NCBI GenBank assembly: GCA_029561735.1
Contig: JAKQWZ010000064.1
Coordinates: 3,583 to 67,582, forward strand
Origin: Candidatus Omnitrophota bacterium
Lineage (GTDB): Bacteria > Omnitrophota > Gorgyraeia > Gygaellales > Profunditerraquicolaceae
DNA: 64,000 nucleotides
Direction of reading: 5' to 3'
Part shown: positions 9,141 through 38,422 of the stretch, one piece after another
Layout of the letters: every line of letters begins with the position of its first letter
How positions within the stretch are numbered: the stretch's first letter is position 1
Notes under the pieces: generated by a model
Databases searched by the model: none
What the model was told of the DNA's origin: nothing
Seen by the model: the letters and a program-made list of their open reading frames with translations, nothing else
Translations under genes and position numbers: made by a program

Positions 9141-9257
9141 TGCCGATAAAGGCCTGCTACCTTTACTGCGGCAACCCAGCCACCATATTACCCCACTTCG
9201 GTAATTTAGGTCTGTGGCTTTGTGTCCCCGCCTTTCGGCGGGTTTACCCTTATCGGC
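9141..9257 (-). promoter_or_regulatory. c-di-GMP-I (GEMM-I) riboswitch aptamer
   Basis: The minus strand reads GCCGATAAGGGTAAACCCGCCGAAAGGCGGGGACACAAAGCCACAGACCTAAATTACCGAAGTGGGGTAATATGGTGGCTGGGTTGCCGCAGT...CCTTTATCGGC. It shares the GGYAAACC, GAAA-capped hairpin, GGGACNCAAAGCC and GGYNGCNGGGUUNCCG blocks of the Vc2-type aptamer, as I recall them. Confidence 0.8.
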
Positions 9258-9263
9258 AATTAA

Positions 9264-9292
9264 AGTATACCACGTACCCCTGATGTTTTCAA
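9264..9292 (-). promoter_or_regulatory. Sigma-70-type promoter of the riboswitch transcript
   Basis: Minus strand TTGAAA-17 nt-TATACT. The predicted TSS is about 9257, the first base of the outer helix of the aptamer. Confidence 0.65.
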
Positions 9293-9314
9293 GGGTACGT
9301 GAATTTTATTTATT

Positions 9315-9749
9315 TTATTGCTGAACCACAGCTGCAGTAGCCAGGTATTTGCCCAGAACCTGCCATGTCTTAGGGCCAACCTTGCCGTCAACCGCAAGCC
9401 CGTTGTCTTTCTGAAATGCTTCAATGGCCTTCTTTGTCTTAGGCCCTATCTTACCGTCAATAGAACCAAGATAATAATTCGCATTCTTAAGTGCGGTCTG
9501 AATATCCATTGCCGATGGCTTAAACGGGCCTGAAGGCGGCAGCTGTTCAAGCTTTGACTCCGGGGCAGCTGCATATGTCACTACCGGGCTTACTTCAGCC
9601 GCCGGGACAGTTGAAACAGCTGTCTGCGCCGTTAACGCCTCCATTGAAGTAGGCTCCTGTAAAGCCGAAAGGTCAGATTCTTTTTTACCGCAACCTGCCA
9701 AATAAATCCCTATTGCCGCAATCGCGATGATAAAAACAAATTTTTTCAT
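9315..9749 (-). CDS. Lipoprotein with a C-terminal peptidoglycan-binding (PG_binding_1-like) domain
   Basis: 144 aa. Lipobox YLAGC|GK. The repeated DGKIGPKT / DGKVGPKT motif is typical of PG-binding domain 1. Confidence 0.75.
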   Translation of the reverse strand: MKKFVFIIAIAAIGIYLAGCGKKESDLSALQEPTSMEALTAQTAVSTVPAAEVSPVVTYAAAPESKLEQLPPSGPFKPSAMDIQTALKNANYYLGSIDGKIGPKTKKAIEAFQKDNGLAVDGKVGPKTWQVLGKYLATAAVVQQ

Positions 9750-9895
9750 TTTATTTCTCCCTTTAATATTTTGTTGGATCCACTGCCATCTTAAAGACTC
9801 TTTTTCACCCCCCTTAAAAAACTGATAGAGCGGCTAAACAAATGCTATTTTAATTTTATTCTTATTCCGTAAAAAATCAAATAAAAAAATCAATC

Positions 9896-10372
9896 CTATC
9901 TGCTTAACGATACTATTTTTAAGACATCTTTGGCGGATTTAGCGTTTTTTAGCTGCTCGACAATAAATTTATCCCTGACCAGGCGGGATATCTCAGCCAG
10001 AATCTTTAAGTGGCTTCCCACCTGCTCGGCAGGAGAAATCAAAACAAAGAACAGATAGGTCTTTTCTCCGTCAAGGGCCTTAAAATCTATGCCTTCTTTT
10101 TTCCTGGCAAAAGCAAGGACAAACTTTTTCGCTCCCTTATATTTAATATGCGGGATGGCTATACCGCCGCCTATTCCGGTAGAGCCCAGGCTTTCTCTTT
10201 CTTTTATTACCTTGAGCAATGTTTTTTTATTCCTGACCCTGGCTGCTTTAGCAATAAAATTAACCAGCTCTTCCAGCAAATCCGGCTTATTTTTACCTTT
10301 GAGCTCCAAATTAACCAGTCTCTCTTTAAGTAAGCCGCTTATTTTCAAATCCTTTGATTCACTCATTATCAC
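9896..10372 (-). CDS. PTS EIIA type-2 domain protein (PtsN / EIIA-Ntr-like)
   Basis: 158 aa. GIGGGIAIPH carries the phosphorylatable His. It lies 8 nt downstream of the MFS gene. Confidence 0.8.
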   Translation of the reverse strand: MIMSESKDLKISGLLKERLVNLELKGKNKPDLLEELVNFIAKAARVRNKKTLLKVIKERESLGSTGIGGGIAIPHIKYKGAKKFVLAFARKKEGIDFKALDGEKTYLFFVLISPAEQVGSHLKILAEISRLVRDKFIVEQLKNAKSAKDVLKIVSLSR

Positions 10373-10380
10373 CGCCCCGA

Positions 10381-11580
10381 TTATTGTATAGCCATTATCT
10401 TAGGATATTTTACACTTATAAATACAAAAAATAAAGCACAAATAATTCCGCTGGATGCCACAGTCAGGCAGACCCCAAAGGCCTGCGAGAATACCCCTGC
10501 CATCAAGTTGCCAAAAGGCATGATACCGGCAAAAGTAAACATGAATGCGCTCATAACCCGGCCCCTGAATTCATCATTTACCGTTGTCTGCAACAGGGTA
10601 TTGGTTATGCTCATGGCAGACACAGAAGACCATCCTGTGATTACCAGCACTGACAACGATAAAATGTACGATCTGGACAAGGCAAACAATACGATTGAAA
10701 GAGAAAATATTATGCTGGAAACAATAAGAAACCTGCCCTTATTTCGGAAATCCCCCATCTTGGCTAAAAGCAAGGCTGCTACCAGCGCTCCCAGTCCGGA
10801 AGCCGCCATAAGCATACCCAGGCCTTTGACCCCCACTTTAAGTACATCATTAGCAAATACCGGCATAAGTATGGCATAAGAGACACCAAAAAAGCTGCTT
10901 ACAGCGACCATAGAAATAAGTATCATTATAGTCGGATGGCTCTTGACATAAGACAAACCCTGGCCCAAGTCTTTCATAAAAGTCATTTCATTGCTGCGTT
11001 TCTGGGCAGGCCTGGTTTTAATTAACAGGAGCGCAATAATAACAGCCAGAAAACTTATTCCGTTGATATAGAAACAACCGGTCATGCCTATTGCGGCAAT
11101 AAGTATACCGGCCAGGGCCGGCCCGATGATCCGGCTGGAGTTAAAAGCTGCGGAATTCAACGCAACCGCGTTTAAAACCCGGTCTTTACCGACCAGCTCA
11201 AAAAGAATAGCCTGCCGGGCAGGCGCATCAAAAGACATTACAATGCCGTTTAATACGGCAATAAACATTATCTGGCTGGGAGTAATGACTTTAAATTGCA
11301 CCAGTAAAGCCAGAATAAATGCCAGCAACATAAAAGCATTCTGGGTAAAAAGCAATATCTTTTTCTTATTAACCCTGTCAGCAAATACCCCACCGAAAAG
11401 AGAAAGGAAGAAAACAGGGGCCAAACTTAAAAATCCCACCAGCCCCAAAAGGAATACGGACTTCGTCAAGTCAAACACCAGCCAGCTCTGGGCAAGGGCC
11501 TGTATCCAGGTGCCGATAAGCGATACAAACATGCCCAGCCAGTAAAGGCGGAAGTTCTTAACTTTTAATGAAGAAAACAT
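10381..11580 (-). CDS. MFS transporter
   Basis: 399 aa, 12 predicted TM helices, and a GGVFADRVNKKK loop motif. It starts 1 nt after the NuoI-like gene. Confidence 0.8.
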   Translation of the reverse strand: MFSSLKVKNFRLYWLGMFVSLIGTWIQALAQSWLVFDLTKSVFLLGLVGFLSLAPVFFLSLFGGVFADRVNKKKILLFTQNAFMLLAFILALLVQFKVITPSQIMFIAVLNGIVMSFDAPARQAILFELVGKDRVLNAVALNSAAFNSSRIIGPALAGILIAAIGMTGCFYINGISFLAVIIALLLIKTRPAQKRSNEMTFMKDLGQGLSYVKSHPTIMILISMVAVSSFFGVSYAILMPVFANDVLKVGVKGLGMLMAASGLGALVAALLLAKMGDFRNKGRFLIVSSIIFSLSIVLFALSRSYILSLSVLVITGWSSVSAMSITNTLLQTTVNDEFRGRVMSAFMFTFAGIMPFGNLMAGVFSQAFGVCLTVASSGIICALFFVFISVKYPKIMAIQ

Positions 11581-11581
11581 T

Positions 11582-12193
11582 TTAAGATTTCAGGACAGCT
11601 TCACGGCGGCAGCGCGGACAAAGTACTTTTATGCGGTCAGCCCGTTTTAATTCGCCTTCCTGCTTATCCTGTAAATGGCCCGTGCCGGACAGGCCCAGGT
11701 TAGCCAAATAAAAAAGCATAAGCGAGACGTTAGAAAAAACCAAGGGGCCGATTTTCCTGGCTACCCAAAGTATCTGGTCCTTGGGCGCAATAATTTCAGA
11801 GCAGCACTCGCACAGGACAAGTTCTTTTTCTATTTTTTGGCGCATAGTGTTTCTTTCTTCGGTTTTAGACAGCTCAAATTCATTGCCCAGAGTTATCCCT
11901 TTTTCCGTCGGACAATTCGCCTGGCATTGGCCGCAAAAGATGCATATATCCCAGCGTATTGTCAAAGTCCTTTTTCCTTTTCCGTTTGCCACTTCATCCT
12001 GAAATTCCAAAGCCCTGGCAGGGCAAACCTGCACGCAGGCAGTGCAACCGATACACTGTTCCTGACTAAATTGTGCCTTTCCGCGGAAACGCTCAAAGGG
12101 CTTATGGGGCTGGCGCGGAAAATCATTGGTATATGGCCGGCTGAACAATGACCTTACCGCCTCTTTTAATTCTCTTAATTTGGGATATTTCAT
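11582..12193 (-). CDS. Hydrogenase 2x[4Fe-4S] subunit (NuoI/EchF/HycF-like) with a Cys-rich C-terminal extension
   Basis: 203 aa. CIGCTACVQVCP and CIFCGQCQANCP are present, with extra CECC...CPRC motifs at the C-terminus. Confidence 0.8.
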   Translation of the reverse strand: MKYPKLRELKEAVRSLFSRPYTNDFPRQPHKPFERFRGKAQFSQEQCIGCTACVQVCPARALEFQDEVANGKGKRTLTIRWDICIFCGQCQANCPTEKGITLGNEFELSKTEERNTMRQKIEKELVLCECCSEIIAPKDQILWVARKIGPLVFSNVSLMLFYLANLGLSGTGHLQDKQEGELKRADRIKVLCPRCRREAVLKS

Positions 12194-12196
12194 ATC

Positions 12197-13966
12197 CTAG
12201 GCCTGCCTTCCTTTATTGAACAAGAAAGCTATAAAATAAGCCGCTTTACTTATACCGGAACTCAATATATTGTAAAAATCGAGCGATTCTTTCTGGATGA
12301 ATTTAAAAATAGCGTTTACAGCCGGCAGTTGCTGGAAAGTCCGGTAAAATTCAGTCGCCGGGAAGCTCGGGTTAAAAGACTGCGGGTCCTCCCCGCCGAT
12401 AAACAGATCATCTGTGCGGGATTTTTTTCCCGCAAGCATAATTTTCCAGAAAATAAAACCCAGCATTAATCCGGCGGCCAGAAGCGCAAATGTCAATGCG
12501 CTGTTCCAGGTCCCGATAAATAAAACCTGTTCGCCAAGCCAGGGTTGGATTACTATCTTTATAAACAACCCCGGCAATACGCCCAGGGTGAGGCATAACC
12601 CGGCCAGAATAATCAGAGAAACAAGGATATTTAACGTGGAATCTGTAGTAACTTTCTTATCAGGTGTATGGTCCTGGCCCAGGAATATGGCATGGATAAA
12701 TTTAACAAAACTGGCCAATGTCAACACGCTCCCAAACATCGCCGCTACAAGCGAGAATATAAGCAGGATGCGCATGAACGGATTAGTTGCCGCAGACAGT
12801 CCCACCAAAGTACTTTGATAAAGCATCCACTTGGAGGCAAACCCGTTAAAAGGCGGCACGCCTGAAATAGATAAGGCAAACACAAGCCCGCATATAAAGG
12901 TAAACGGCATGCCTAAAGCCAGCCCGCCGAGCTTATCCAGCTCAAAAGTACCTTTCTTCTCAGCAGCAGCACCTGCGGTAAAGAACAGCCCGCTTTTATA
13001 TATTGCATTATTGAGCATATGGAATACAGCCGCGGCGATTCCCAAAATATTCCCCGTGCCAAACCCGATAACCATATATCCTACCTGGCTAATGGCGTGA
13101 AAAGATAAAAGTTTTCTCAGGTCATGCTGGGCCATAGCCAGCATAACCGCAAACATAATAGTGACGCTGCCGGTTATCAGCAGGACTGCAAAAGCTATAT
13201 TATTCAGGACAAAAAAATCAGTGCAGATCCGCGCCAATAAATATATTCCCAATAGCTTATCCAGTGAAGCCGGCAAAATTGCCATTACCGGGACAGGGGC
13301 CTTATCTGCCGCATCCGGTATCCAGGTATGAAACGGAGCACAACCGGCCTTGGCAAGTGCGCCTGAAAGCATCAGCCCAAACGAGAGCCAGCTGACCGCT
13401 GAATTCAAAAGTACTTTAGGCCCGATCGGCATGATCGAAGTGCCGGTTAAATAAACGTAAAGGCTTATGCCTAATAACAGACAGAAATCCCCGAAACCAA
13501 CAATTGAAAAAGCCTTATTAGCGCTGGAACCCGAACCCAGGCTCAACAGACCATATAGTAAAATGAGGCATGCCCCCCATGAAAAAATCAACAAAATAAA
13601 ATCAAGAGAAAGGCAAACCAGATTAGAAAAAGCCAGCAGGGCTAAAAGATACGATAGGAATGCCCGGCTTGATTTCACCTGCCTGCAGCCAAGAGAATAA
13701 AGCACGGTAAAAAAGCAGAACACGCATGTAAAAAGCATAGTGAAACGGGATAGGTTATTTACTCCCAGCACTACGCTGTAATTACCGATGACTTTCAAAA
13801 CCAAAGCTGATGGAGGGTTTATAAACACCAAAACCGAAAAAAACAGGGCGGTAAAGGCGGCGAACAGCGCCAGCGCTTCTTTTGCTTTCTGTTTATTGAT
13901 AATCAACAAGACAGGGCTGAAAAGCAAAGGCAAAAAAACCAGAAAGAATATACTCTGCCAGATCAT
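12197..13966 (-). CDS. Antiporter-like membrane subunit (NuoL/EchA/HyfB-like)
   Basis: 589 aa and polytopic. Motifs of complex I subunit 5/Mrp type are present (WIPDA, FHMLNNAIYKSGLF). Confidence 0.8.
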   Translation of the reverse strand: MIWQSIFFLVFLPLLFSPVLLIINKQKAKEALALFAAFTALFFSVLVFINPPSALVLKVIGNYSVVLGVNNLSRFTMLFTCVFCFFTVLYSLGCRQVKSSRAFLSYLLALLAFSNLVCLSLDFILLIFSWGACLILLYGLLSLGSGSSANKAFSIVGFGDFCLLLGISLYVYLTGTSIMPIGPKVLLNSAVSWLSFGLMLSGALAKAGCAPFHTWIPDAADKAPVPVMAILPASLDKLLGIYLLARICTDFFVLNNIAFAVLLITGSVTIMFAVMLAMAQHDLRKLLSFHAISQVGYMVIGFGTGNILGIAAAVFHMLNNAIYKSGLFFTAGAAAEKKGTFELDKLGGLALGMPFTFICGLVFALSISGVPPFNGFASKWMLYQSTLVGLSAATNPFMRILLIFSLVAAMFGSVLTLASFVKFIHAIFLGQDHTPDKKVTTDSTLNILVSLIILAGLCLTLGVLPGLFIKIVIQPWLGEQVLFIGTWNSALTFALLAAGLMLGFIFWKIMLAGKKSRTDDLFIGGEDPQSFNPSFPATEFYRTFQQLPAVNAIFKFIQKESLDFYNILSSGISKAAYFIAFLFNKGRQA

Positions 13967-14583
13967 TTTATTAACGCCTCTATAAGGCTAAACGGTAATT
14001 TGACCGCAAACCCCAGTATTAATAATAAAACCCCCAGGCCAAAAGCCAGCCATAAAGATAAGGAATTATTTTCCTGCGCTTTTATTTTCGGCTCTCCCAG
14101 GAAAACCCGGTTAAATACCCGCATCAGATAAAACAAAGTCAGGAATGCACCGAATACAGCAAAAACTTCAATGACAATATGCCCCTCCTGGACCGAAGAA
14201 ATAGTTGTAAGCAATTTAGGCCAAAAACCTAAAAACGGAGGAATTCCCATTATTGAGAAGGCGCAAAGCAGAAATGCCAATGCGGTATAAGGCATTGCTT
14301 TTAAAAGCCCTGCTGTATGGTTAATATTATCAGAGCCCGTAGCCTTCTTTATTAAACTTGCGCATAAAAACAACCCGCATAACCCTATAACCTGAGAAAA
14401 TAAATATAATACAGACATGCGCATAGCCGCAATACCGCTCTGGCAAAAAGCCAAAAGCGAAAACCCTGCCTGGCTTAACGTAGCAAAAATAAGGATCTTT
14501 TTAAGGCTATTTTGCGCAACAGCTAAAAGCGCTCCTGTAATTATTATGGCGACAGCTGCAATAAGGGTAAGGTTTAAGCACAT
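13963..14583 (-). CDS. Half-length antiporter-like membrane subunit (C-terminal-half NuoN/MrpD-like)
   Basis: 206 aa and about 6 TM helices. LSQAGF...LFLCAS...MGIPPFLGFWPK resembles the distal half of NuoN/MrpD. It overlaps both neighbours by 4 nt and 10 nt. Confidence 0.55.
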   Translation of the reverse strand: MCLNLTLIAAVAIIITGALLAVAQNSLKKILIFATLSQAGFSLLAFCQSGIAAMRMSVLYLFSQVIGLCGLFLCASLIKKATGSDNINHTAGLLKAMPYTALAFLLCAFSIMGIPPFLGFWPKLLTTISSVQEGHIVIEVFAVFGAFLTLFYLMRVFNRVFLGEPKIKAQENNSLSLWLAFGLGVLLLILGFAVKLPFSLIEALIK

Positions 14584-15206
14584 TTGATTTTTATTTTTAA
14601 TAAGTTCCGGGCAATTTTTTTAGTGTGATAATAGATAGCTGCGGTAAAATCCAGCATGTTAAGAAACATGTTGCAGGAAAAAGGCGAGCAAAGCTTATTG
14701 ATCAGGCGCTCATTGTGGCGCCTGCGGTATTCATCAACCAGCGTGTCAATATGCTCCTGGCTTTTTAACACCTGCTTAAGCCTTCCCGGATCGTCAATTT
14801 CCAGCGCCTGAACCACTTCTTTAAAAGCGGCTTCGCTGCGGTTATAAAGCTCAACATACTCTTTTACCGCATCATCGCTAAATAGCAGCTTTTCTTCTAT
14901 TTTTATCTGCACTCTCTCCAGTATATCTTTACAGTAATCGCCGATAAGCTCCAGGTCTTCGACGACCTCCACGTAAATAATTACTTCTTTTTTTTCCGTT
15001 TCCTTTTTCAGGCCCTGTCCTGCTTCAATAAGCTCGCCGGTAAGCATCTTTTCAAAATCGTTAAGCCTGTTCTCATCTTCAAGGACTTTGGCCAAAAGCT
15101 CAAGGTCATGATCCATAAAGACCTTGAAAGTCCTTTGCCACATAGAAAGAGCAAGGTTTGCCATATCAGCTACTTTTTTCTTAATATTGCAGAAATTCTC
15201 GCTCAT
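14574..15206 (-). CDS. PhoU-domain protein embedded in the hydrogenase operon
   Basis: ATG at 15206 overlaps the TGA of the large subunit (ATGA). MSENF...LELLAKVLEDENRLNDFE...LELIGDYCKDILE resembles PhoU repeats with E/DxxxD motifs. The longer ORF-track start at 15263 would overlap the hydrogenase gene by 60 nt. Confidence 0.65.
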   Translation of the reverse strand: MSENFCNIKKKVADMANLALSMWQRTFKVFMDHDLELLAKVLEDENRLNDFEKMLTGELIEAGQGLKKETEKKEVIIYVEVVEDLELIGDYCKDILERVQIKIEEKLLFSDDAVKEYVELYNRSEAAFKEVVQALEIDDPGRLKQVLKSQEHIDTLVDEYRRRHNERLINKLCSPFSCNMFLNMLDFTAAIYYHTKKIARNLLKIKIKCA

Positions 15207-16402
15207 AAGCGGCCCTCCTTGATCTGCATAGTTTTTTCCTGGCATAACCTGACCAAATCCCACCCGTTCATTATCTTTTTATTTGTTGATTTATCAATAA
15301 CCGCCAGCCTCTCCGTACAGCAGTAACAGGGGTCAACCGCAGCCAAAGTAAGCGCTGCATCCGAAATGGTGCCGCCGACAGCTCCCACTTTGTTAGAAGC
15401 AACATTGGTAAAGCTGGGGGCGCGTATTTTCAGCCTTTGCGGGCGGTTAGTGCCATCGCTCTTGACAAAATGTATGCATTCTCCGCGCGGGGCTTCAACC
15501 CTGCCGATACCTTCTCCGGCCGGAATATCTTTTACATCTGAGTCAATTTCGCCTTTAGGCATTTTATCTAAACACTGCCTGATTATCCGGACACATTCAT
15601 ATAATTCCAGGATACGCGCTGTTGTTTTAGCAAGGATATCCCCTTCTTTTTCAATGATGACATTCCAGTCAAGCCTGGTTATCGCACCGTAAGGCTCATC
15701 CCTCCTGATATCAATATCAATTCCCGAAGCCCGGGCAGTAGGGCCGACAACACACCAGTCAATTGCCTGTTGCCGGGTAAGCCGTCCTACCCCTTTTAAC
15801 CGGCCCCTGATAACAGGGTCATCTTTTATGGCGCCGAGAAACAGGTCTATTGCCGGGGTAAATTCATCAAGAGTCTTTTTCAAAACCGGTATGTCTTCGT
15901 CTTTGATGTCCCGCCGCACTCCGCCGACCTTAAACATAGCGTAATTATTACGGTTTCCCGTAACCATCTCAAACATATCCAGCACCGGCTCGCGGTTTTT
16001 CCATGCCCACATCCAGACTGTGTTATAACCGATAAAATGGCCTACCAGCCCCAGCCAAAGCAAATGGCTGTGGATCCTTTGCAATTCATCAATAACCGTA
16101 CGGATATAAAGCGCCCTTTCAGGCACAACCTTGGACTCACCGCCCAATAAATCTTCAACTGAAAGCACATAGGCATAAGGATGGCTGGAAGAGCAAATAC
16201 CGCAAATCCTTTCCACTAAATACGGAACCTGGTCGTAGTGTTTACTTTCAGCTAATTTTTCTATACCCCGGTGGTTATAACCGATGATTATATCAATATC
16301 GACGACCTTTTCTCCATCCACATAAAGCTGAAAAAACTCCGGCTCTTCCTGCAAAGGATGATACGGGCCTATAGGAACTATAACTTTATGACTCATGTTC
16401 AT
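15203..16402 (-). CDS. [NiFe] hydrogenase large subunit, group 4 (EchE/MbhL/NuoD-like)
   Basis: 399 aa. N-terminal RICGICSSSH (RxCGxCxxxH) and C-terminal DPCYCCTER (DPCxxCxxR) supply all four Ni-Fe Cys ligands. About 32 aa follow the C-terminal motif. Confidence 0.9.
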   Translation of the reverse strand: MNMSHKVIVPIGPYHPLQEEPEFFQLYVDGEKVVDIDIIIGYNHRGIEKLAESKHYDQVPYLVERICGICSSSHPYAYVLSVEDLLGGESKVVPERALYIRTVIDELQRIHSHLLWLGLVGHFIGYNTVWMWAWKNREPVLDMFEMVTGNRNNYAMFKVGGVRRDIKDEDIPVLKKTLDEFTPAIDLFLGAIKDDPVIRGRLKGVGRLTRQQAIDWCVVGPTARASGIDIDIRRDEPYGAITRLDWNVIIEKEGDILAKTTARILELYECVRIIRQCLDKMPKGEIDSDVKDIPAGEGIGRVEAPRGECIHFVKSDGTNRPQRLKIRAPSFTNVASNKVGAVGGTISDAALTLAAVDPCYCCTERLAVIDKSTNKKIMNGWDLVRLCQEKTMQIKEGRL

Positions 16403-16820
16403 TCCTCAATGGAAAATCTCCTTGCGGCCAGTCTTCAGCCAAAAGAAGCCTTTTTAAATTGGGATGATTCTTAAAATTTATCCCGAGCATCTCCCAGATT
16501 TCGCGCTCAATCCATTCTGCCCCGGAGAAAACCGGAGTAATTGAATCAATTTCAGGGTGCTTTCTATCTTCAAGCATCGTTTTTATAGAATATACTTCGC
16601 CTGCCGGGTCATACATAAAATGATACACTATCTCAAGCCCGGCTGGCGTATCCGTGCCTGAAGCAGTGGAGAACCTTAAGCCCAGCTCTTTGAATAAGAG
16701 GCGCGCAACGCCGAAAATATTGGCTTTATTTATCGCAAAATAGATTCTTCGCGCAGAAGGCTCTTTCCAATCCAGGATTTTATCGCCTAACCTCTCTTTG
16801 ATCCTCTCTCTGATATCCAT
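16386..16820 (-). CDS. Hydrogenase subunit, NuoC/EchD-like
   Basis: 144 aa. ...AEWIEREIWEMLGINFKNHP matches the NuoC family C-terminal motif. Confidence 0.8.
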   Translation of the reverse strand: MDIRERIKERLGDKILDWKEPSARRIYFAINKANIFGVARLLFKELGLRFSTASGTDTPAGLEIVYHFMYDPAGEVYSIKTMLEDRKHPEIDSITPVFSGAEWIEREIWEMLGINFKNHPNLKRLLLAEDWPQGDFPLRNEHES

Positions 16821-16823
16821 AAG

Positions 16824-17249
16824 TTACTTACCCTTATTTATCTTTTTTACCAGTTTTGTAATACCCGCAATTATTGCCTCGGGCTTCGGAGGGCAGCCCG
16901 GGATATAAAGATCAACCGGCAATATCTCATCAAGCGGCTCTCTGACATTGTAACTATAGCGAAACATATGCTGGGAAAGCGCGCATTGGCCGACAGCAAC
17001 CACTACGCACGGTTTAGGCGCCTGCTCATAGATTTTTTTCATCCTCGGCACGGACTTTCTATTCATAGCTCCGGTAATCAACAAAGCGTCGGCATGCCTG
17101 ACCGAACCGATCAATTGCACGCCAAAACGCTCTATATCATGCCTGGGCGTAAAACAATCAAGAATTTCAATATCGCAGTTATTACATGATCCGCAGCTTA
17201 TATGAAAAACCCAGATCGACTTAGTTAATGCTTTAGTTTTTATGCTCAT
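16824..17249 (-). CDS. [NiFe] hydrogenase small subunit, NuoB/EchC-like
   Basis: 141 aa. CGSCNNCDIE, GQCA and IPGCPPKPE provide the ligands of the proximal [4Fe-4S] cluster. Confidence 0.9.
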   Translation of the reverse strand: MSIKTKALTKSIWVFHISCGSCNNCDIEILDCFTPRHDIERFGVQLIGSVRHADALLITGAMNRKSVPRMKKIYEQAPKPCVVVAVGQCALSQHMFRYSYNVREPLDEILPVDLYIPGCPPKPEAIIAGITKLVKKINKGK

Positions 17250-18160
17250 TATAACCCCACGGCAGCCAGTATAACGCTAATAACAGCCATTATCGTAACC
17301 GGGCCCCAGAAAAATCTTAACGCCTGATCAATACGTATACGGGGATTTGTGTTCTTAATCAAGACAGCTAACAATACTATACCGATATATTTAGGAATAA
17401 GCAACATCCATCCCAGGTCTTTGCCCATAAATAGACAAATAAGCAATAAAGGCATAGTGTATAGAAGAACGGCTTTGGTCAATTTAAATACAGCCAGAAG
17501 CGGTCCGGAATATTCTATTAAAGTCCCGCCCATGATCTCCTGCTCTGCCTCTGATATGTCAAAGGGGGCAAAACCTAATTTAGCCTGCATGGCAAAAAAT
17601 GCCGCAATAAAAGCCAGCGCACCTGAAAACGAGAATATGTTTGAGCCAAAACTGGCCTGATAATTGATTATCGACCCCAGCTGGATAGAATCCTGGCATC
17701 TTATAATTACCGCGATTAATGATAAAATAAAAGGCAGCTCATACCCTAAAATCAGCTTCATTTCACGGCTGGCGCCGACTGACGCCAGAGGATTGCGCGA
17801 GCTCGAAGCGCCGATCATCATGGAAACAGCCGGCATAGTCAAAAGATAAAGTATGACTATAATATCTGCGTAGAAGCTTTCCGAAGGCCAGAGCATCACT
17901 TTACCTAATACAGTAGCTGCTAGGACCAGGCTTAAAAACCCAAGATAAGGCGACAGGATAAAAGTCCAGCGGCTGCTGCGCGGGATTATAGTTTCTTTGC
18001 CAAAAAGCTTGGCTATATCAATAAAATTCTGGTACCATGGCGGGCCGACGCGCCATTGCAGGCGTGCGGATATTTTACGGTCAAACCATCCGGCCAGCAG
18101 GCCGACGCAGACGGCAGTCAGTAATCCCGGGAATACCAGAAAATTTAACAGAATCTTCAT
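17249..18160 (-). CDS. Membrane subunit NuoH/EchB/HycD-like
   Basis: 303 aa and 8 TM helices. RLQWRVGP, PFDISEAEQEI and EYSG motifs are of NuoH type. Confidence 0.85.
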   Translation of the reverse strand: MKILLNFLVFPGLLTAVCVGLLAGWFDRKISARLQWRVGPPWYQNFIDIAKLFGKETIIPRSSRWTFILSPYLGFLSLVLAATVLGKVMLWPSESFYADIIVILYLLTMPAVSMMIGASSSRNPLASVGASREMKLILGYELPFILSLIAVIIRCQDSIQLGSIINYQASFGSNIFSFSGALAFIAAFFAMQAKLGFAPFDISEAEQEIMGGTLIEYSGPLLAVFKLTKAVLLYTMPLLLICLFMGKDLGWMLLIPKYIGIVLLAVLIKNTNPRIRIDQALRFFWGPVTIMAVISVILAAVGL

Positions 18161-18191
18161 ATTAGTTTAAGCTAAAAGTCCGGATTTGTTA

Positions 18192-18689
18192 TTACTTCTT
18201 CTTTGGCTGCGCCTTTATGTCCTCTCTGGACCACTGCCTGGTATGCACAGCCAGGTGTTCTCCGACAAAATATATATCCTGCTCTAAATCCTCTTCAACA
18301 TCCTTAATCTCTACTGCTTTTTTAGGGCAAGTTGTAATGCACTTAGGAAGCCTGCCCTTCTGCCCGACGCAAAAATCGCATTTTGAATCTAAATATGGTA
18401 TAAAATCCTGGAATATCACCCCGAACGGGCAAGCCAATGAACAAGATTTACAACTCGTACAACGCATTTTATAACGCTTAATATGCCCTTCGCCGGTACG
18501 CTCAAGCGCGTTATGATAACAGGCGTTAACGCAGGGCGCCTGTTCGCAATGCCGGCAGATAGTGGCAAATGTTGCATATTCCCTTAAATTAGCAATGCCA
18601 TTATTCTGCGGATGATAAAAATAATCGCAGGCAACCTTACACTCTCTGCAAGTGCTGCAAATCTCCAAATCAATGAATAAGCGCGCCAT
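18192..18689 (-). CDS. 4Fe-4S dicluster ferredoxin-like subunit (HycB-like)
   Basis: 165 aa with several CxxCxxCxxxC(P) motifs (CSTCRECKVAC, CRHCEQAPC, CTSCKSCSLACP, CDFC...CPKKA). Confidence 0.8.
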   Translation of the reverse strand: MARLFIDLEICSTCRECKVACDYFYHPQNNGIANLREYATFATICRHCEQAPCVNACYHNALERTGEGHIKRYKMRCTSCKSCSLACPFGVIFQDFIPYLDSKCDFCVGQKGRLPKCITTCPKKAVEIKDVEEDLEQDIYFVGEHLAVHTRQWSREDIKAQPKKK

Positions 18690-18695
18690 ATTTAT

Positions 18696-19511
18696 TTAAT
18701 CCCAGATATCATGGGTATCTTTTAGTTCTTCGTAAGTAAATACCGGGCCGTCTTTGCATATGTAGAATTTGCCTATACGGCAATGCCCGCATTTGCCCAA
18801 CCCGCAGGACATTGATTTCTCCATTGAAAGATATATATCCGCAGGGGCAAAACCTAAATCGAGCAGCTTAAGCGTAACAAACTTCATCATAATCGGCGGC
18901 CCGCAGACAATTGCAACCGCCTTTTTCATATCTATAGGTAGGTCATTCAATACCGTGGTAATCAACCCCACATGCCCTGTCCAAGAAGGGTCTCCTACAT
19001 CAACGGTAGTCAGCCAGTCTACCCTCTCTTTGGCAGCCCAAACCGGGATCTGGTCTTTATAAATGATATCCTGTGCAGTGCGGGCGCCGTAACGAAATAC
19101 TATCTTATTATACTTATTAATATCGGCGAATAATCCGAACAAAAGCGCCCTCAGCGGAGCCAGACCCACCCCGCCTCCGACGATCAAAACATCTTTACCT
19201 TCAAATTTATGCAAAGGGTACCCTTTTCCATACGGGCCGCGGATACCTAAAGAAATGTTTTTGGGGGAATTATGCAGTAAAGAAGTAACCTTCCCGGCAT
19301 TCATTATAGTTACGTCTATCTTCTCTTTTACTGCCGGGTCCGATGACGGAGTAAACGGGGCCTCCCCTATGCCGGGCAGGGTCAATTCAATAAACTGGCC
19401 GCATTTAAAATCAAAACGTTCTTTTGGGCGTATAACAAAAGTTTTGATTTTGGAGGATTCGGTAATAATATTTTCCAGCACGCCCTCAATAGGTTTATAG
19501 ATATTTTTCAT
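18696..19511 (-). CDS. FAD/NAD(P)-binding oxidoreductase with C-terminal [2Fe-2S] (HydG / AsrB / PyrK-like)
   Basis: 271 aa. FNR-like fold motifs (APFTPSS, LIVGGGVGLAPL) and a C-terminal CGLGKCGHC cluster motif. Confidence 0.8.
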   Translation of the reverse strand: MKNIYKPIEGVLENIITESSKIKTFVIRPKERFDFKCGQFIELTLPGIGEAPFTPSSDPAVKEKIDVTIMNAGKVTSLLHNSPKNISLGIRGPYGKGYPLHKFEGKDVLIVGGGVGLAPLRALLFGLFADINKYNKIVFRYGARTAQDIIYKDQIPVWAAKERVDWLTTVDVGDPSWTGHVGLITTVLNDLPIDMKKAVAIVCGPPIMMKFVTLKLLDLGFAPADIYLSMEKSMSCGLGKCGHCRIGKFYICKDGPVFTYEELKDTHDIWD

Positions 19512-20569
19512 TGCGCGAGATTCAACTTTTTTGCCAGGTCTTTTAACACTTCCCTGATGTCAATCTTGCCCGGGCATACTTCAATACATCTGCCGCAACC
19601 GCAGCATCCCGGGATCTTAAGATGTTCAAAGAAAAAATCAAATTTCTTAGTAAACCTGAAACGCAGGCGCTGCGCGCGCATCTTATTAGGATTAGCGCCC
19701 CCGGCAACCCGGGCATAATTTGCATAGAGACAGGAATCCCACATCTTGACTTTTTCGTTTACGCCTGCTGACTTACGGTCTTCAAGTAAAAAACAATGGC
19801 AGGTATCACAGATCAAATTGCATCCACCGCATTCAACGCAAGTCTGCATAAACTGGCTCCATGTATCAAGGCTGAATCCCTCTTTAATCAGGCGCTGCTG
19901 TATTGACGTCGGCGGGATGTTTTTCGGAGCCAATTCTCTTTTTAACCTTTCAATCAGGTTATTTCTTTTTGCCAGGCGCGCAGCTATCTGGGTATCTTTG
20001 GCAACTGCAAAATATTCCGGGTAATTATTTACAAGTTCCTGCCCTTTTTCAGAGCCGATCTCGGCTAAAAAACCGTCATTAAGTGGGGATAGGTTCATAT
20101 CAAAGCCGGTTGTCGGATGCGGTAAAACATCCATACTCAGGCAAAAGCAAACTTCTTTAAAAGCAGTGCAATCGCTGGAAATTAATATCGTATTTTCTCT
20201 TCTGGCGCGGTACAGCGATTCTTCGGCGGCTCCTTCCAGAAAAACAAAATCCTGAATACGGTGCGCCTGGATATCGCAGCTTTTTACCCCGAATATTATA
20301 ACCTGCCCTAAATCCTTCAAATTATCTTCACAAGCAAAATAATCCGCGGCTTTTTCCTTGGCCAAGGTAAAGAACGATTTAAGCGGCTCAACACAGCGGT
20401 AAGGGTTAAATAGCAGAGTGTCTTTAGCAGCGGTTTTTTGAAAAGAATAATCCACTTCCTTGGTATAATTCTGCGGTTTGGCTGCAGGAGAAAATACCGT
20501 ATAATTATCTCTTAGCCGCTCCACAAGGAAAGAGAGTTTATCTGTAGCAATAAAATATACCTTATTCAT
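19508..20569 (-). CDS. Fe-S subunit, sulfhydrogenase beta (HydB) / AsrA-like
   Basis: 353 aa. CVECGGCNLICDTCHC and CCGCGRCIEVCP motifs. It overlaps the next gene by 4 nt. Confidence 0.7.
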   Translation of the reverse strand: MNKVYFIATDKLSFLVERLRDNYTVFSPAAKPQNYTKEVDYSFQKTAAKDTLLFNPYRCVEPLKSFFTLAKEKAADYFACEDNLKDLGQVIIFGVKSCDIQAHRIQDFVFLEGAAEESLYRARRENTILISSDCTAFKEVCFCLSMDVLPHPTTGFDMNLSPLNDGFLAEIGSEKGQELVNNYPEYFAVAKDTQIAARLAKRNNLIERLKRELAPKNIPPTSIQQRLIKEGFSLDTWSQFMQTCVECGGCNLICDTCHCFLLEDRKSAGVNEKVKMWDSCLYANYARVAGGANPNKMRAQRLRFRFTKKFDFFFEHLKIPGCCGCGRCIEVCPGKIDIREVLKDLAKKLNLAQ

Positions 20570-20601
20570 TGATTTTGGTTTTACTAAAAAGAGGGAATAA
20601 C

Positions 20602-20621
20602 TTTGTGAAAAATATCACAAA
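20602..20621. promoter_or_regulatory. Perfect CRP-type palindrome TTTGTGA-N6-TCACAAA in the hydrogenase operon leader
   Basis: The plus strand reads TTTGTGAAAAATATCACAAA. The core TGTGA-N6-TCACA equals the CRP consensus half-sites. The centre is about 42 nt upstream of the ATG at 20569. Confidence 0.55.
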
Positions 20622-20651
20622 TATGCCCTAAAAAAAATATTTCGTGCTATA

Positions 20652-20680
20652 AATATACATTACCTGCCTATTTTTGTCAA
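20652..20680 (-). promoter_or_regulatory. Sigma-70-type promoter of the hydrogenase operon
   Basis: Minus strand TTGACA-17 nt-TATATT, about 85 nt upstream of the first gene. Confidence 0.6.
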
Positions 20681-20691
20681 GAAGATATTCT

Positions 20692-21144
20692 CTACTTCGC
20701 CCCGGAGAGCTTTTGCCTTACCAGATCGCTGACCAGCTTACCGTCTGCTTTTCCGGCTACACGGATATTTACCTCTTTCATCACTTTGCCCATATCTTTA
20801 ATATCAACTGCGCCTACTGCAGCAATAATCTCTTCTACAACTTTTTTGACTTCCTCCAGGACCATCTGCGCGGGCAGATAGGTTTTTAAGATCTCCAGCT
20901 CTTTTTTTTCTTTCTCCGCCATTTCCGGGCGGTTGCCTTTTGTAAAGGCCTCAATAGAATCATCGCGCTGCTTCATCTGCTTTCTAATCACAACGATTAT
21001 ATCATTATCGTCAAGCTTATTCTTTTTTTTGGCAATAGCCGCATTCATAAACTCTGCACGCAGGCAGCTAAGTACGGAAGTCTTTAAAGTATCCCTGCTT
21101 TTCATCGCTTCTTTGTAATCACTTAATATTCTTTCTTCAATCAT
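20692..21144 (-). CDS. GatB/YqeY domain protein
   Basis: 150 aa. The pattern L..YKEAMKSRD...LR resembles YqeY. Confidence 0.75.
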   Translation of the reverse strand: MIEERILSDYKEAMKSRDTLKTSVLSCLRAEFMNAAIAKKKNKLDDNDIIVVIRKQMKQRDDSIEAFTKGNRPEMAEKEKKELEILKTYLPAQMVLEEVKKVVEEIIAAVGAVDIKDMGKVMKEVNIRVAGKADGKLVSDLVRQKLSGAK

Positions 21145-21162
21145 ATTTATCCTCCGGATAGT

Positions 21163-22059
21163 TTAAAAAAGGCATTTCTTAAAAAAGCCCAGCCTTGAAT
21201 CCAGCTTTTTCAATGTCAACCGGTGCGTCTTGTCCGTGCCAAAATCTTCAATATTAAACGAAGCGGCTACTGTGCCGTATTCAAGGGCCAATTTTATATT
21301 CTGACGGCTCAAAACTTTTGTCCGGCTCAAATAACCCATGAATGCTCCGGCAAATGTATCCCCTGCCCCGGTAGGGTCAATAACGTCTTCAGCCGGATAC
21401 GCCGGAAGTGCTAGCATAAATTTATCGCTGTAAAAAAATACCCCGTGTTCGCCTTTCTTAACCAGCACCATCTTAGGGCCGATACAAGATAAAGATTTGG
21501 CTGCTTTAATCAGGTTATCCTCTCCGGATAAGCTTCTTGCCTCCTGGTCATTAGCCACGAAGATGTCTACTTTGTTAAGCACCTTGAGCAAGGCAGGGCG
21601 TTTAGTATCTATCCAGTAATTCATGCTGTCTAGGCCGATAAGCCGGGGTTTACGCATAGAGGCCAATAAACTAAGCTGAATATCCGGATCAACATTTGCC
21701 AGAAACACATTTTTTATTTCTTTCTGGCGATCGGAAATAACCGGCTTAAATGAAGCCAGCACCCCCAATTCGGTATTAAGGGTAAATGCGGTATTTAAAT
21801 CTCCCTTGTATTCACCTGACCAGCTAAAAGTCTTTCCGCTTTCCCGGATCAGTGAATCAACTATCAAGCCCTTGCCTTTTAAGAAATTCACGTGCTTAAC
21901 CGGAAAATCTTCCCCTACAACCGCTACCAGATGCACGTCAGTAAAAAGCCGCGCTGACATGGAAAAATGAGTAGCCGAACCACCGAGCATCTTTTTTCTT
22001 TCTCCGTGCGGGGTCTTAACAGTATCCAGCGCCACTGTACCTAAAACAAGTAAGCTCAT
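21163..22059 (-). CDS. PfkB-family carbohydrate kinase
   Basis: 298 aa. DPTGAGDTFAGAF matches the ribokinase/PfkB signature 2. Confidence 0.85.
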   Translation of the reverse strand: MSLLVLGTVALDTVKTPHGERKKMLGGSATHFSMSARLFTDVHLVAVVGEDFPVKHVNFLKGKGLIVDSLIRESGKTFSWSGEYKGDLNTAFTLNTELGVLASFKPVISDRQKEIKNVFLANVDPDIQLSLLASMRKPRLIGLDSMNYWIDTKRPALLKVLNKVDIFVANDQEARSLSGEDNLIKAAKSLSCIGPKMVLVKKGEHGVFFYSDKFMLALPAYPAEDVIDPTGAGDTFAGAFMGYLSRTKVLSRQNIKLALEYGTVAASFNIEDFGTDKTHRLTLKKLDSRLGFFKKCLF

Positions 22060-36763: not shown

Positions 36764-37159
36764 CTACTCCAGCTCCAGATTCCTGGAGCTTTGCCAGATA
36801 CCATGAATATTACAATAAGAAGAAGCTAAAATAACCCCAGGTTTATCTGTTTTTAAATTTATTACAGCTTCAGATTGTGTAAACACAGTACTGGTATTAG
36901 GGCCCTGGACTGATTCTCCGTGAGCATTAAACTCAATTCTTGCTAGCTGATAAGGAAATTTTTCCCCTTCCGGAAGGAAATAGGCTTCAATCCAGCGTAT
37001 ATGATGTTCGGTGGTATTGGGATGCGGGATTTGCCTGCCGACACAAAGCTTAATTTCTATTGGCTCTGATTTTTTTGCTTTCTGGGGAGCGTCTATTACC
37101 GGAACATGTTTTTCTTTAGCCCAGTCTGCGCTCTGAAACAAATCCTTTAGCTCTGCCAT
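36764..37159 (-). CDS. Superoxide reductase, 1Fe-SOR (neelaredoxin class)
   Basis: ATG at 37159 follows the SD AAGGAGGG. EKHVPVI, HPNTTEHHIRW and CNIHGIW supply the 4 His + Cys ligands of the catalytic iron centre. There is no N-terminal desulforedoxin domain. Confidence 0.85.
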   Translation of the reverse strand: MAELKDLFQSADWAKEKHVPVIDAPQKAKKSEPIEIKLCVGRQIPHPNTTEHHIRWIEAYFLPEGEKFPYQLARIEFNAHGESVQGPNTSTVFTQSEAVINLKTDKPGVILASSYCNIHGIWQSSRNLELE

Positions 37160-37175
37160 ATAACCCTCCTTGCAT

Positions 37176-37217
37176 AAAAAGCGCACACCGGCGCAACATT
37201 CTTTAAGCGCCGGGTGT
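37176..37217 (-). terminator. Intrinsic terminator/attenuator between the flavodiiron and SOR genes
   Basis: Minus strand ACACCCGGCGC-N13-GCGCCGGTGTG followed by CGCTTTTTAT. It begins at the FDP stop codon. Confidence 0.6.
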
Positions 37218-38410
37218 TATTTGATTTTTGAAGCAAATGCCTTACCGAAATCAAAACACCTGTTCAGGTCAGCCGGATCAGGCGCATAAACCAGGCCTAA
37301 CGATTCCTGGGCTATTTCAAGGCCGGCTTCCTTAAGCACTCCCTCAATTTCTTTGGCTGCTCCGCCAGCCCATCCAAAAGATCCGAATACCGCAGTGACC
37401 CTGTTTTTTGGTTTCAAGCCCTTAAGAAATTCTAGGAAACCGGCAATACCGGGTAGCATATCGTTGTCATGGGTAGAAGAACCGAAAATAAACCCCTTAG
37501 CTTCCAGCATCTCTTTAATTATCTCACTCCGGTCTGAAATTGCCACATCAAAAAGTTTTACTTCTATCCCTGATTCAAGCAGGCCATCAACGATCTTTTT
37601 GGCCATTTTTTCGGTTGAACCCCACATAGTTTCATAAACTATAACAACTTTGGGCTTGACTGTATTTTTTGCCCAGGAAATATAGGCATTAATAATTTTC
37701 AAGGGGTCTTTACGCCAGATTATTCCGTGGCTGGGAGCGATCATCTTAACCGGAATGTTCATTTTTTGTATTTCTTCTATCTTTTTCAGGATTACAGTTC
37801 CCAGCGGCCAGAGGATATTGCCGTAATATTTTTGCGCCTCATCCATAAGCTCACACTCGCTTACTTCATCGTCAAACCTCTGGCTGGTTGCATAATGCTG
37901 CCCAAAGGCGTCATTAGGCAAAAGCAATTCTTCCTGCGGGCAATAAGTAAACATGCTATCCGGCCAGTGGATCATCGGGGCTTCAATAAATTTAAGCGTA
38001 CGCCTGCCAAGTTTTAATTCATCACCGGTTTTAATAATCTGGAAATCCCAATCCCCGTAATAATAACGAAAAAGACCTTCTTTGCATTTTTGCGTACAGT
38101 ATATTTTAGCTTTAGGACAAAGCATCATAATTTCCGGTAGGGCCTGAGTATGATCAGGCTCAACATGATTAACTACAATATAATCTATTTTTTCAGGCGG
38201 CACTACTGACTTGATCTTCTCAATAAAATCCCGGGAAAAAGCCCCTAGCACAGCATCAATCAACACGGTCTTTTCATCTTTAATCAAATAAGAATTATAT
38301 GTAGAGCCCCTGTTAGTGGAATAGGTGTGCCCGTGGAACGTCCTAAGGTTCCAGTCAACTGCCCCTACCCAAAATATATCTTTTTTTATCTCAACAGCAT
38401 TCATGATCAA
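37217..38410 (-). CDS. Flavodiiron protein (class A, rubredoxin:oxygen/NO oxidoreductase type)
   Basis: 397 aa. A metallo-beta-lactamase-like domain with HVEPDH is followed by a C-terminal flavodoxin domain (VVIVYETMWGSTEKMA). Confidence 0.9.
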   Translation of the reverse strand: MIMNAVEIKKDIFWVGAVDWNLRTFHGHTYSTNRGSTYNSYLIKDEKTVLIDAVLGAFSRDFIEKIKSVVPPEKIDYIVVNHVEPDHTQALPEIMMLCPKAKIYCTQKCKEGLFRYYYGDWDFQIIKTGDELKLGRRTLKFIEAPMIHWPDSMFTYCPQEELLLPNDAFGQHYATSQRFDDEVSECELMDEAQKYYGNILWPLGTVILKKIEEIQKMNIPVKMIAPSHGIIWRKDPLKIINAYISWAKNTVKPKVVIVYETMWGSTEKMAKKIVDGLLESGIEVKLFDVAISDRSEIIKEMLEAKGFIFGSSTHDNDMLPGIAGFLEFLKGLKPKNRVTAVFGSFGWAGGAAKEIEGVLKEAGLEIAQESLGLVYAPDPADLNRCFDFGKAFASKIK

Positions 38411-38422
38411 CCTGCCCCTCCC

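Follow-up and report, generated by a model that had tools for sequence, protein, structure and literature searches.

The stretch of DNA considered here, which we call the window, comprises 64,000 nucleotides (nt) of a contig from a Candidatus Omnitrophota bacterium. Our subject is a set of genes for a membrane-bound [NiFe] hydrogenase and its likely electron-input module, at positions 9896-20680 on the minus strand, where thirteen co-directional open reading frames (ORFs) run from 20569 down to 9896 (Table 1). Successive ORFs either overlap by 1-17 nt or are separated by 1-31 nt, and the gaps flanking the set are wider (122 nt upstream, 146 nt downstream). The first two genes overlap by 4 nt, 6 nt separate the second from the third, and the third is followed by the widest gap of the unit, 31 nt. 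Co-direction alone is weak evidence of an operon because about 62 kb of the window lies on the minus strand: 64 successive predicted genes, from 912 to 62786, are read that way, and the GC skew is negative throughout. The promoter-like site listed in Table 1 is the best sigma-70-like match (11/12) in a scan of positions 9200-21300. The only strong terminator-like hairpin (9302..9270) comes one gene past g13, after a gene for a peptidoglycan-binding protein. The initial annotation of this DNA had seen a thirteen-gene, tightly coupled operon, with six core genes and a module of three; the packed ORFs and their short junctions agree with the first statement, and gene families assigned by Pfam and NCBIfam profiles with the second. 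It had left the PhoU gene and the truncated antiporter ORF unnamed. On these grounds we take the region to be a genuine and conserved operon from an uncultured Omnitrophota bacterium.

Table 1. Genes and predicted control sites of the hydrogenase operon (window coordinates; size in amino acids; Pfam matches with E-values where given)
Feature	Assignment	Position	Strand	Size	Pfam match or remark
Promoter	sigma-70-like, TTGACA-17-TATATT (predicted)	20652..20680	-		in the 122-nt gap 5' of g01
Operator	Rex operator-like palindrome TTGTGATATTTTTCACAA (predicted)	20603..20620			between promoter-like site and g01 start
g01	HydB/AsrA-like Fe-S subunit	19508..20569	-	353	Fer4_22 2.7e-26
g02	HydG/AsrB-like FAD/NAD(P)/[2Fe-2S] subunit	18696..19511	-	271	NAD_binding_1, FAD_binding_6, DHODB_Fe-S_bind
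g03	HycB/CooF-type polyferredoxin, 16 Cys (4x[4Fe-4S])	18192..18689	-	165	Fer4_11
g04	NuoH/MbhM/EchB-like membrane subunit	17249..18160	-	303	NADHdh 7e-61
g05	NuoB-like hydrogenase small subunit	16824..17249	-	141	Oxidored_q6 4e-29
g06	NuoC-like subunit	16386..16820	-	144	Complex1_30kDa 3e-27
g07	NuoD-like group-4 [NiFe] large subunit	15203..16402	-	399	Complex1_49kDa, NiFeSe_Hases
g08	PhoU-domain protein	14574..15206	-	210	PhoU 5e-18, two stretches
g09	truncated antiporter-like ORF	13963..14583	-	206	Proton_antipo_M, profile positions 150-294 only
g10	full antiporter-like subunit (L2), MrpA/MbhH-like	12197..13966	-	589	Proton_antipo_M 2e-46
g11	NuoI/HycF/MbhN-like 2x[4Fe-4S] subunit	11582..12193	-	203	Fer4_7 and related
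g12	MFS_3 (EntS-like) transporter	10381..11580	-	399	MFS_3 5e-63
g13	PTS EIIA_2 (PtsN-like)	9896..10372	-	158	PTS_EIIA_2 2e-34

The large subunit carries both nickel-iron motifs, RICGICSSSH (C67, C70) and DPCYCCTER (C359, C362), and the four cysteines are invariant in 80/80 orthologues. Since all four are present and invariant, membership in complex I or in the Mbx or Mbs complexes is excluded. The initial annotation, which had argued from the same residues for a hydrogenase and not a complex I remnant, was right in this. The best solved relatives are MbhL (6cfw_L, 2e-83) and HycE (7z0s_E, 4e-76), the group-4-type references solved in the PDB being MbhL, HycE and MbsL only. By its motifs and relatives the enzyme is a group-4 [NiFe] hydrogenase. 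Beyond DPCYCCTER the protein continues with a tail of 34 amino acids, of the kind removed by HycI from HycE; the window ORFs that were scanned yielded neither hyp maturation genes nor a protease of the HycI type. The proximal-cluster cysteines of the small subunit (C22, C25, C89 and C119) are invariant in 73/73 sequences, the NuoH-like subunit retains 100/102 positions invariant among relatives, and in the NuoI-like subunit the eight cluster cysteines together with C128, C131, C192 and C195 are invariant (49/49). Solved relatives of this last protein include HycF (7z0s_F, 2e-17) and MbhN (6e-15). Its C-terminal extension of about 90 amino acids (the region of residues 128-195) bears the four extra invariant cysteines, arranged as CxxC...CxxC. 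MbhN has no counterpart of this extension, as its chain is only 139 amino acids long; the extension may be a docking element, or the binding site of zinc or of an additional cluster. Elsewhere in the window (52133-53781) we find parts of an ECF-type cobalt/nickel transporter (CbiQ T-component, ABC ATPase), which could supply the hydrogenase with nickel.

Relatives of the large subunit number in the thousands, those with a name being metagenome-assembled genomes (MAGs) of Omnitrophota. Our related loci are the best 80 of the 549 species-level genomes that have such a relative (one genome per species); large-subunit identity ranges over 73-83%, and nearly all of these genomes are labelled Omnitrophota. 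Synteny was counted in the 52 loci that extend more than 4.5 kb upstream, the window proteins being mapped onto each. The order HydB-HydG-Fer4_11-NuoH-NuoB-NuoC-NuoD, on one strand, is found in 52/52: across about 25% divergence of the large subunit, the HydB-HydG-CooF block adjoins the core with no intervening gene. The initial annotation had suggested a check on whether hydB- and hydG-like genes co-occur with this clade in other genomes, and had allowed that they might be accidental neighbours. They do co-occur, throughout the related Omnitrophota loci counted, and the idea of an accidental neighbour fails because the order of the block is fixed in every one of them. Conservation extends to the residues. 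Subunit by subunit, all cofactor ligands are invariant across 49-80 orthologues, and the subunits other than g09 retain 96-98% of clade-invariant positions. At one locus (L033) an extra pair of partial NuoD-like and NuoB-like matches lies upstream of the operon and may represent a second hydrogenase or a complex-I-like cluster.

Profiles and synteny alike uphold the earlier placing of HydB-like, HydG-like and polyferredoxin genes at the 5' side of the unit. The HydB-like protein matches the NCBIfam models ShyB (1.5e-47), HydB (1.8e-39) and AsrA (9e-36), all under their equivalog cut-offs; its best solved relative is the beta subunit of Pyrococcus furiosus SHI (9nez_B, 1e-34), and 15 of its cysteines are invariant in 57/57 orthologues. 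The HydG-like protein is closest, among solved structures, to SHI gamma (9nez_C, 2.5e-53). In 60 sequences its flavin motif GEAPFTPSS and its nicotinamide-nucleotide motif GGGVGLAPLR are invariant or almost so, and R144 and D148 of the motif YGAR(T/S)xxD are invariant, as are, among orthologues, the [2Fe-2S] ligands C236, C241, C244 and C252. Loss of the NAD(P) site, which the initial annotation had named as a fact that would tell against its proposal, is not what we see: FAD, NAD(P) and [2Fe-2S] motifs are all conserved. The arginine of YGAR(T/S) aligns with the TAR of the NADPH-dependent SHI gamma. Its resemblance to the 2'-phosphate-binding arginine of NADPH-specific FNR-family enzymes is a hint, by analogy, as to the nucleotide used.

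The third protein of the module is a polyferredoxin whose 16 cysteines are invariant in 64/64 orthologues. Its best solved relatives are HycB of formate hydrogenlyase (FHL; 7z0s_B, 4e-13) and HycB4/B3 of HDCR. In the FHL of Escherichia coli, HycB links FdhF to HycF. The dehydrogenase-linked group 4 enzymes (FHL, 4a/4b, and the CO-dependent 4c) have such a connector, which g03 provides here; they also have a catalytic partner of the FdhF, FdhA or CooS type, which the operon lacks. As for the first two proteins, they are about equally near to the group 3b HydB/HydG pair and to AsrA/AsrB in NCBIfam, with scores far under the cut-offs (124 vs 323 bits for g01 against AsrA, 210 vs 289 bits for g02 against AsrB). 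By these scores the pair falls within the AsrAB/HydBG superfamily, without being orthologous to any characterised enzyme.

The known companions of such a pair were looked for. Pfam profiles find no AsrC siroheme subunit in the operon or its flanks, which sets the locus apart from an AsrABC system. There is no soluble group 3 alpha/delta pair, the sole hydrogenase pair being NuoD/NuoB-like, and the large subunit reaches 46 bits against ShyA, for a cut-off of 700. Neither formate dehydrogenase nor CO dehydrogenase is encoded in the window, where no ORF of more than 600 amino acids is a molybdopterin enzyme; these ORF scans confirm what the initial annotation had said of both partners. Directly upstream of hydB, no FdhF/FdhA- or CooS-type gene is present in the 52 Omnitrophota loci. 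The only Prismane-family ORF of the window was considered as a CooS and rejected: it is a hybrid-cluster protein (Hcp), with 711 bits to hydroxylamine reductase vs 34 bits to CooS. Seven loci have extra genes between yqeY and hydB, and a formate dehydrogenase-like (Fdh-like) partner was sought among them; they are unrelated small ORFs, rex, or unassigned ORFs of 589 and 466 amino acids.

The control region is also telling. The palindrome TTGTGATATTTTTCACAA, predicted to be a Rex operator, is 1 mismatch away from TTGTGAA-N4-TTCACAA and is the sole match at two mismatches or fewer in the whole window. In 22 related loci (for example L045, L050 and L071) an operator-like site with at most two mismatches lies 25-75 nt upstream of hydB, and it is usually the sole such site in the 20-kb locus; the background rate of operator-like sites is 0.014 per 330 nt at three mismatches or fewer. 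In L017, L018 and L045 a rex gene is the immediate upstream neighbour of hydB; in L070 and L073 it lies about 1.4 kb away on the same side. In two of the three loci where it is adjacent, the best operator-like match (2 mismatches) is upstream of rex itself. No rex gene was found in the 64-kb window by tblastn. Rex releases its targets when the NADH/NAD+ ratio rises, so expression of the operon probably starts as reducing equivalents build up, in keeping with a redox valve that evolves H2. Independently of the motifs in the module, the operator would link the operon to the NADH/NAD+ ratio.

The membrane arm has a history of its own. Among the 49 related loci that are complete through the NuoI-like gene, 41 have a full Mrp cassette between the large subunit and NuoI. 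Its parts, identified by Pfam on L026, are an MbhD/E fusion, MnhB, an MrpC/NuoK-like protein, a further MrpD-like protein and MrpE, F and G; one or two additional antiporter-like subunits accompany it. The cassette that marks the Mbh-Mrp architecture of groups 4d and 4g is not in the window. It is missing from 8/49 loci: L030, which has two antiporter-like subunits, and seven others in which L2 is the only one. The window is like L030, except that its first antiporter-like gene (L1) is without about 255 N-terminal residues. What is left of this gene, g09, aligns to residues ~260-464 of the L1 of L026, a first MrpD-like subunit, and is an intact ORF overlapped by its neighbours at both ends. 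When g09 is compared with full-length L1 orthologues, the identity is 0.82 times that of L2 in the same pairs, vs 1.13 +/- 0.15 in other genomes, and g09 retains 38/44 clade-invariant positions (6 lost). In short, g09 evolves faster than expected. An assembly artefact was considered and rejected, for the truncation is identical in four assemblies from three or four samples, which at 99.9-100% DNA identity are too alike to gauge selection on g09. The full antiporter-like subunit, g10, has MrpA (7qru_A, 5e-39) and MbhH (6cfw_H, 5e-36) as its best solved relatives and retains 123/128 invariant positions, the lost ones being all uncharged.

The L1 and L2 proteins of the window are closest to those of L025 and L026, which bear Mrp, and to those of L027, where the contig stops short of the cassette. 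Seven of the eight other Mrp-less loci form a near-clade on a neighbour-joining tree of the large subunit that is unsupported and, at 73-83% identity, poorly resolved. Because L1 and L2 of the window are most like those of Mrp-bearing loci and the other Mrp-less loci group apart, the cassette was probably lost more than once, in at least two independent events, although the branching is weakly resolved. The window enzyme is, on this comparison, a secondarily reduced hydrogenase of the Mbh-Mrp lineage that has converged on an Ech-like subunit count. The initial annotation had called it Ech-type. The term describes the number of subunits and not the descent, given the full Mbh-Mrp module in most complete relatives. 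An Ech enzyme, furthermore, has six subunits and no extra input, whereas three extra redox subunits are present in 52/52 loci and the window adds the PhoU ORF and the truncated antiporter ORF. For Profunditerraquicolaceae, passages of two published surveys report HydDB runs that return group 4g membrane-bound hydrogenases, not 4e (PMC10066038, PMC8542988). The subgroup of the window enzyme is taken from these calls on the family, which probably concern the same gene family. A passage of the same work places the MAGs UBA6233, UBA1562 and RBG-13-41-10, which are among our relatives with 73-83% large-subunit identity, in Profunditerraquicolaceae, within class Velamenicoccia (PMC10066038).

How might such an enzyme work? 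In sulfhydrogenase and in anaerobic sulfite reductase, the AsrAB/HydBG pair takes electrons from NAD(P)H at an FNR-type FAD and sends them singly along Fe-S clusters. Because pairs of this type oxidise NAD(P)H in the contexts where they are known, we favour, with modest confidence, an NAD(P)H-linked membrane hydrogenase, to which the module would be attached and for which NAD(P)H would be the substrate. Electrons would pass from NAD(P)H to the FAD and [2Fe-2S] cluster of the HydG-like protein, to the [4Fe-4S] clusters of the HydB-like protein, through the four clusters of the HycB/CooF-like connector and the two of the NuoI-like subunit, and on to the NuoB-like proximal cluster and the Ni-Fe site. 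This wiring would follow the plan of formate hydrogenlyase and of the CO-dependent hydrogenase, with the substrate module swapped for an NAD(P)H dehydrogenase of the AsrA/AsrB type. The ancestral form of the clade has a full Mbh-Mrp arm; deletion of the Mrp block in the window organism has left the NuoH-like protein and one intact antiporter-like subunit, an Ech-like minimum, beside the fast-evolving remnant of half a gene. The role of the enzyme is likely to be redox balancing: a build-up of NADH would make Rex let go, and electrons of NAD(P)H would be vented as H2 at low H2 pressure, while the membrane arm would couple this near-equilibrium NAD(P)H/H2 reaction to an ion gradient. What the sequences show is the set of genes, their cofactor ligands, a synteny kept among relatives, the Rex site and a reduced arm; that the parts assemble, that NAD(P)H is the substrate, and in which direction and stoichiometry ions are coupled, we infer.

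Several facts weigh against the NAD(P)H-linked enzyme. The scores of the HydB- and HydG-like proteins lie under every NCBIfam equivalog cut-off. The cofactor signals disagree, since the YGAR motif suggests NADPH, by analogy, and Rex senses NADH. A conserved operon is by itself no proof of one complex. Rex, in other anaerobes, controls ferredoxin-dependent hydrogenases too, so its operator is supportive and not specific for NAD(P)H. The step from NAD(P)H to H2 costs about +18 kJ/mol under standard conditions (textbook potentials), and turns slightly favourable only once H2 has fallen to a few Pa. As the step is uphill, outward pumping of ions during H2 formation from NAD(P)H would be infeasible save at very low H2; for the same reason the membrane arm would either let a gradient drive H2 evolution or conserve energy from H2 uptake. 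To this must be added that the surveys of Omnitrophota, in the passages that deal with it, treat such a hydrogenase as a ferredoxin-dependent Mbh (PMC8542988, PMC10066038). A stronger form of our reading is a true ion-coupled NAD(P)H:H+ oxidoreductase that gained its NAD(P)H module independently, as complex I gained NuoEFG. It would spend ion-motive force on the uphill transfer of NAD(P)H electrons to H2, or save energy when NAD(P)+ is reduced with H2. This form is possible, if doubtful.

The energetic difficulty would be resolved if ferredoxin were the main donor, docking, as it does in Mbh and Ech, on the NuoI-like subunit or on the CooF-like one, with the HydBG-like branch as a second port. 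That port might serve a confurcation-like reaction, in which ferredoxin and NAD(P)H together yield H2, or a partial ferredoxin:NAD(P)+ oxidoreductase. The core is indeed nearest to the ferredoxin-dependent MbhL, most relatives keep the full Mbh-Mrp arm, and a three-way branched network, bifurcating or confurcating, has been proposed for group 4b clusters linked to SHI-beta/gamma homologues (PMC13582414). Yet the third, Fdh-like branch of those 4b clusters is absent directly upstream of hydB in 52/52 Omnitrophota loci, the operon has no ferredoxin gene, and its sole flavin is the FNR/PyrK-type FAD of the HydG-like protein. In its known relatives (SHI gamma, NfnA/PyrK) an FAD of this type is not the bifurcating flavin. 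We regard ferredoxin as main donor as rather unlikely. The HydB, HydG and CooF-like proteins might, on the other hand, make a separate soluble oxidoreductase, such as an NAD(P)H:ferredoxin reductase or a reductase of the NAD(P)H:polysulfide/sulfite type, and be no more than co-transcribed with a ferredoxin-dependent membrane hydrogenase. AsrAB/HydBG modules do serve varied partners, sulfite reductase and group 3b hydrogenase included (NCBIfam), the widest gap inside the unit, of 31 nt, falls between the connector and the NuoH-like gene, and sharing an operon does not prove assembly. Such independence, however, sits badly with a block that keeps its order and its place against the core, with nothing between, in 52/52 loci over about 25% large-subunit divergence. 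No AsrC/siroheme, group 3 large/small or GltD/SudA-like partner is found among the window ORFs scanned, and in FHL the usual link to NuoI-like subunits is a protein of the g03 family. A separate enzyme is, for these reasons, quite improbable.

Decay of the whole system in the window organism must also be weighed, in which case the loss of the Mrp block and of half an antiporter gene would betray a non-functional relic. The Mrp module is gone, the first antiporter-like gene is shorn of some 255 N-terminal residues, and the remainder, as said, evolves faster than expected, with 6/44 invariant positions lost. The other eleven genes, on the contrary, are intact, with 96-98% of clade-invariant positions and every cofactor ligand kept. 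Eight other species have Mrp-less operons, so minimal forms persist. The four near-identical assemblies, for their part, differ mostly at synonymous positions (14/19 differences; 10/14 distinct sites). We deem a relic highly improbable.

The NAD(P)H-linked enzyme that we favour has precedents, none of them identical. The 4g hydrogenase of Omnitrophota, as described in passages of two surveys (Williams et al., 2021, PMC8542988; Seymour et al., 2023, PMC10066038), is probably of the same gene family. The 2021 survey, in the passage concerned, reports it as Mrp-linked, and most relatives here do have the Mbh-Mrp arm that the window copy is without. The passages on hydrogenase in these surveys make no mention of HydB/HydG/CooF-like genes. 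Such genes were noted beside the Mbh-Mrp hydrogenase of Saganbacteria, where asrA-, asrB- and cooF-like genes occur with an unclassifiable molybdopterin subunit, and whose nearest relatives are in Omnitrophica and Zixibacteria (Matheus Carnevali et al., 2019, PMC6349859). The "Mbh-Mrp-oxidoreductase" clusters of Saganbacteria and Elusimicrobia (PMC6349859; Meheust et al., 2020, bioRxiv 10.1101/765248) share with our operon the asrA/asrB/cooF-like genes and antiporter-like subunits, and the former genes are viewed by the authors as an oxidoreductase or NADPH module (PMC6349859, PMC13582414). A 2026 survey in Front Microbiol finds SHI-beta/gamma homologues and Fdh-like proteins in group 4b clusters and proposes bifurcation (PMC13582414). 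All of these clusters, of Saganbacteria, of Elusimicrobia and of group 4b, include a gene for a molybdopterin Fdh-like subunit, which in many cases lacks the catalytic Cys/Sec, whereas none stands beside the Omnitrophota operons. Earlier still, Spring et al. (2010, PMC3035292) had put forward an NADPH-dehydrogenase-linked complex of MBH/MBX type in Thermosphaera aggregans. This "dehydrogenase-linked MBX complex", of Thermosphaera aggregans, Desulfurococcus kamchatkensis and Staphylothermus marinus, would oxidise NADPH with protons or sulfur as acceptor, and its Mrp cassette was kept in one lineage and lost in others, in parallel with what we see in the window clade (PMC3035292). Its NADPH module, by contrast, is of the SudA/GltD type and not HydB/HydG-like, and its owners are archaeal hyperthermophiles. 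The initial annotation believed that this mode of coupling had not been characterised biochemically. That much stands, for we found no biochemical characterisation of an NAD(P)H-linked group-4 hydrogenase in the literature searched; as an idea it is not new, having been proposed from sequence in 2010, 2019 and 2026. The operon is a variant of a layout already noticed in other genomes, where the proposals likewise rest on sequence.

Characterised enzymes offer likenesses in parts. The FHL of E. coli (Hyc, 4a; PDB 7Z0S) has the same wiring, from a dehydrogenase through HycB, HycF and HycG to HycE, a two-subunit membrane arm (HycC, HycD) and, as in g07, a large-subunit tail after the second CxxC. 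It differs in that FdhF, not an NAD(P)H flavoprotein pair, is the substrate module, and in that the NuoC and NuoD parts are fused in HycE; g07 is nearer to MbhL. With P. furiosus SHI (group 3b; PDB 9NEZ) the first two proteins share cluster and FAD/NADPH motifs, but SHI joins them to soluble group 3 alpha/delta subunits, and the window to a membrane NuoD/NuoB-like group 4 pair through an extra polyferredoxin. Ech (4e; Methanosarcina, Desulfovibrio, Thermoanaerobacter) resembles the window in its minimal arm, with one antiporter-like and one NuoH-like subunit, and in its small peripheral arm. The window differs from it by descent from Mbh-Mrp, by three extra input subunits, by the PhoU gene and by the truncated second antiporter ORF.

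The remaining genes of the operon are less easily fitted to a hydrogenase. The ATG of the PhoU-domain gene overlaps the stop codon of the large-subunit gene (ATGA), a PhoU gene is at the matching position in 33/49 complete related loci, and the protein retains 44/45 invariant positions. It might serve as an accessory subunit, as a regulatory one or in metal handling; no function of PhoU-like proteins in hydrogenase operons has, to our knowledge, been described. A gene of the g12 type follows the NuoI-like gene in 26/45 related loci and begins, in the window, 1 nt past the stop of g11. The place of g13 is variable, genes of this type being found after the operon in just a few related loci. Neither g12, a co-transcribed accessory, nor g13 is likely to encode a subunit of the enzyme. 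Apart from the operon, the window has at 36764-41246 a cluster of oxidative and nitrosative stress genes typical of anaerobes, comprising a desulfoferrodoxin-domain protein, a flavodiiron protein (ODP and flavodoxin), an Hcr-like NADH oxidoreductase, Hcp and a regulator of the Rrf2 family.

What sets the Omnitrophota operons apart is the absence of an Fdh-like subunit across the loci examined, the strict association of the core with the HydBG/CooF block (52/52), the Rex operator, and a series of reduced membrane arms that has the window at one of its ends. If the module were only co-transcribed with the core, we would have before us an ordinary Mbh/Ech-type hydrogenase beside a redox enzyme. 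If it is attached, the operon would encode a membrane hydrogenase fed directly by NAD(P)H, and this would be a second, independent solution to the step by which complex I joined an NADH module to an ion pump derived from a hydrogenase. Metabolic reconstructions of Omnitrophota would then have to change, as the surveys, in the passages cited above, now book the enzyme as a ferredoxin-dependent Mbh. The conserved Rex site gives regulatory and bioenergetic predictions that can be tested. And, should the reading be true, the variants found in Omnitrophota, which keep a full Mrp arm or have three, two or one antiporter-like subunits, would make a natural series in which coupling stoichiometry could be compared with the size of the arm.

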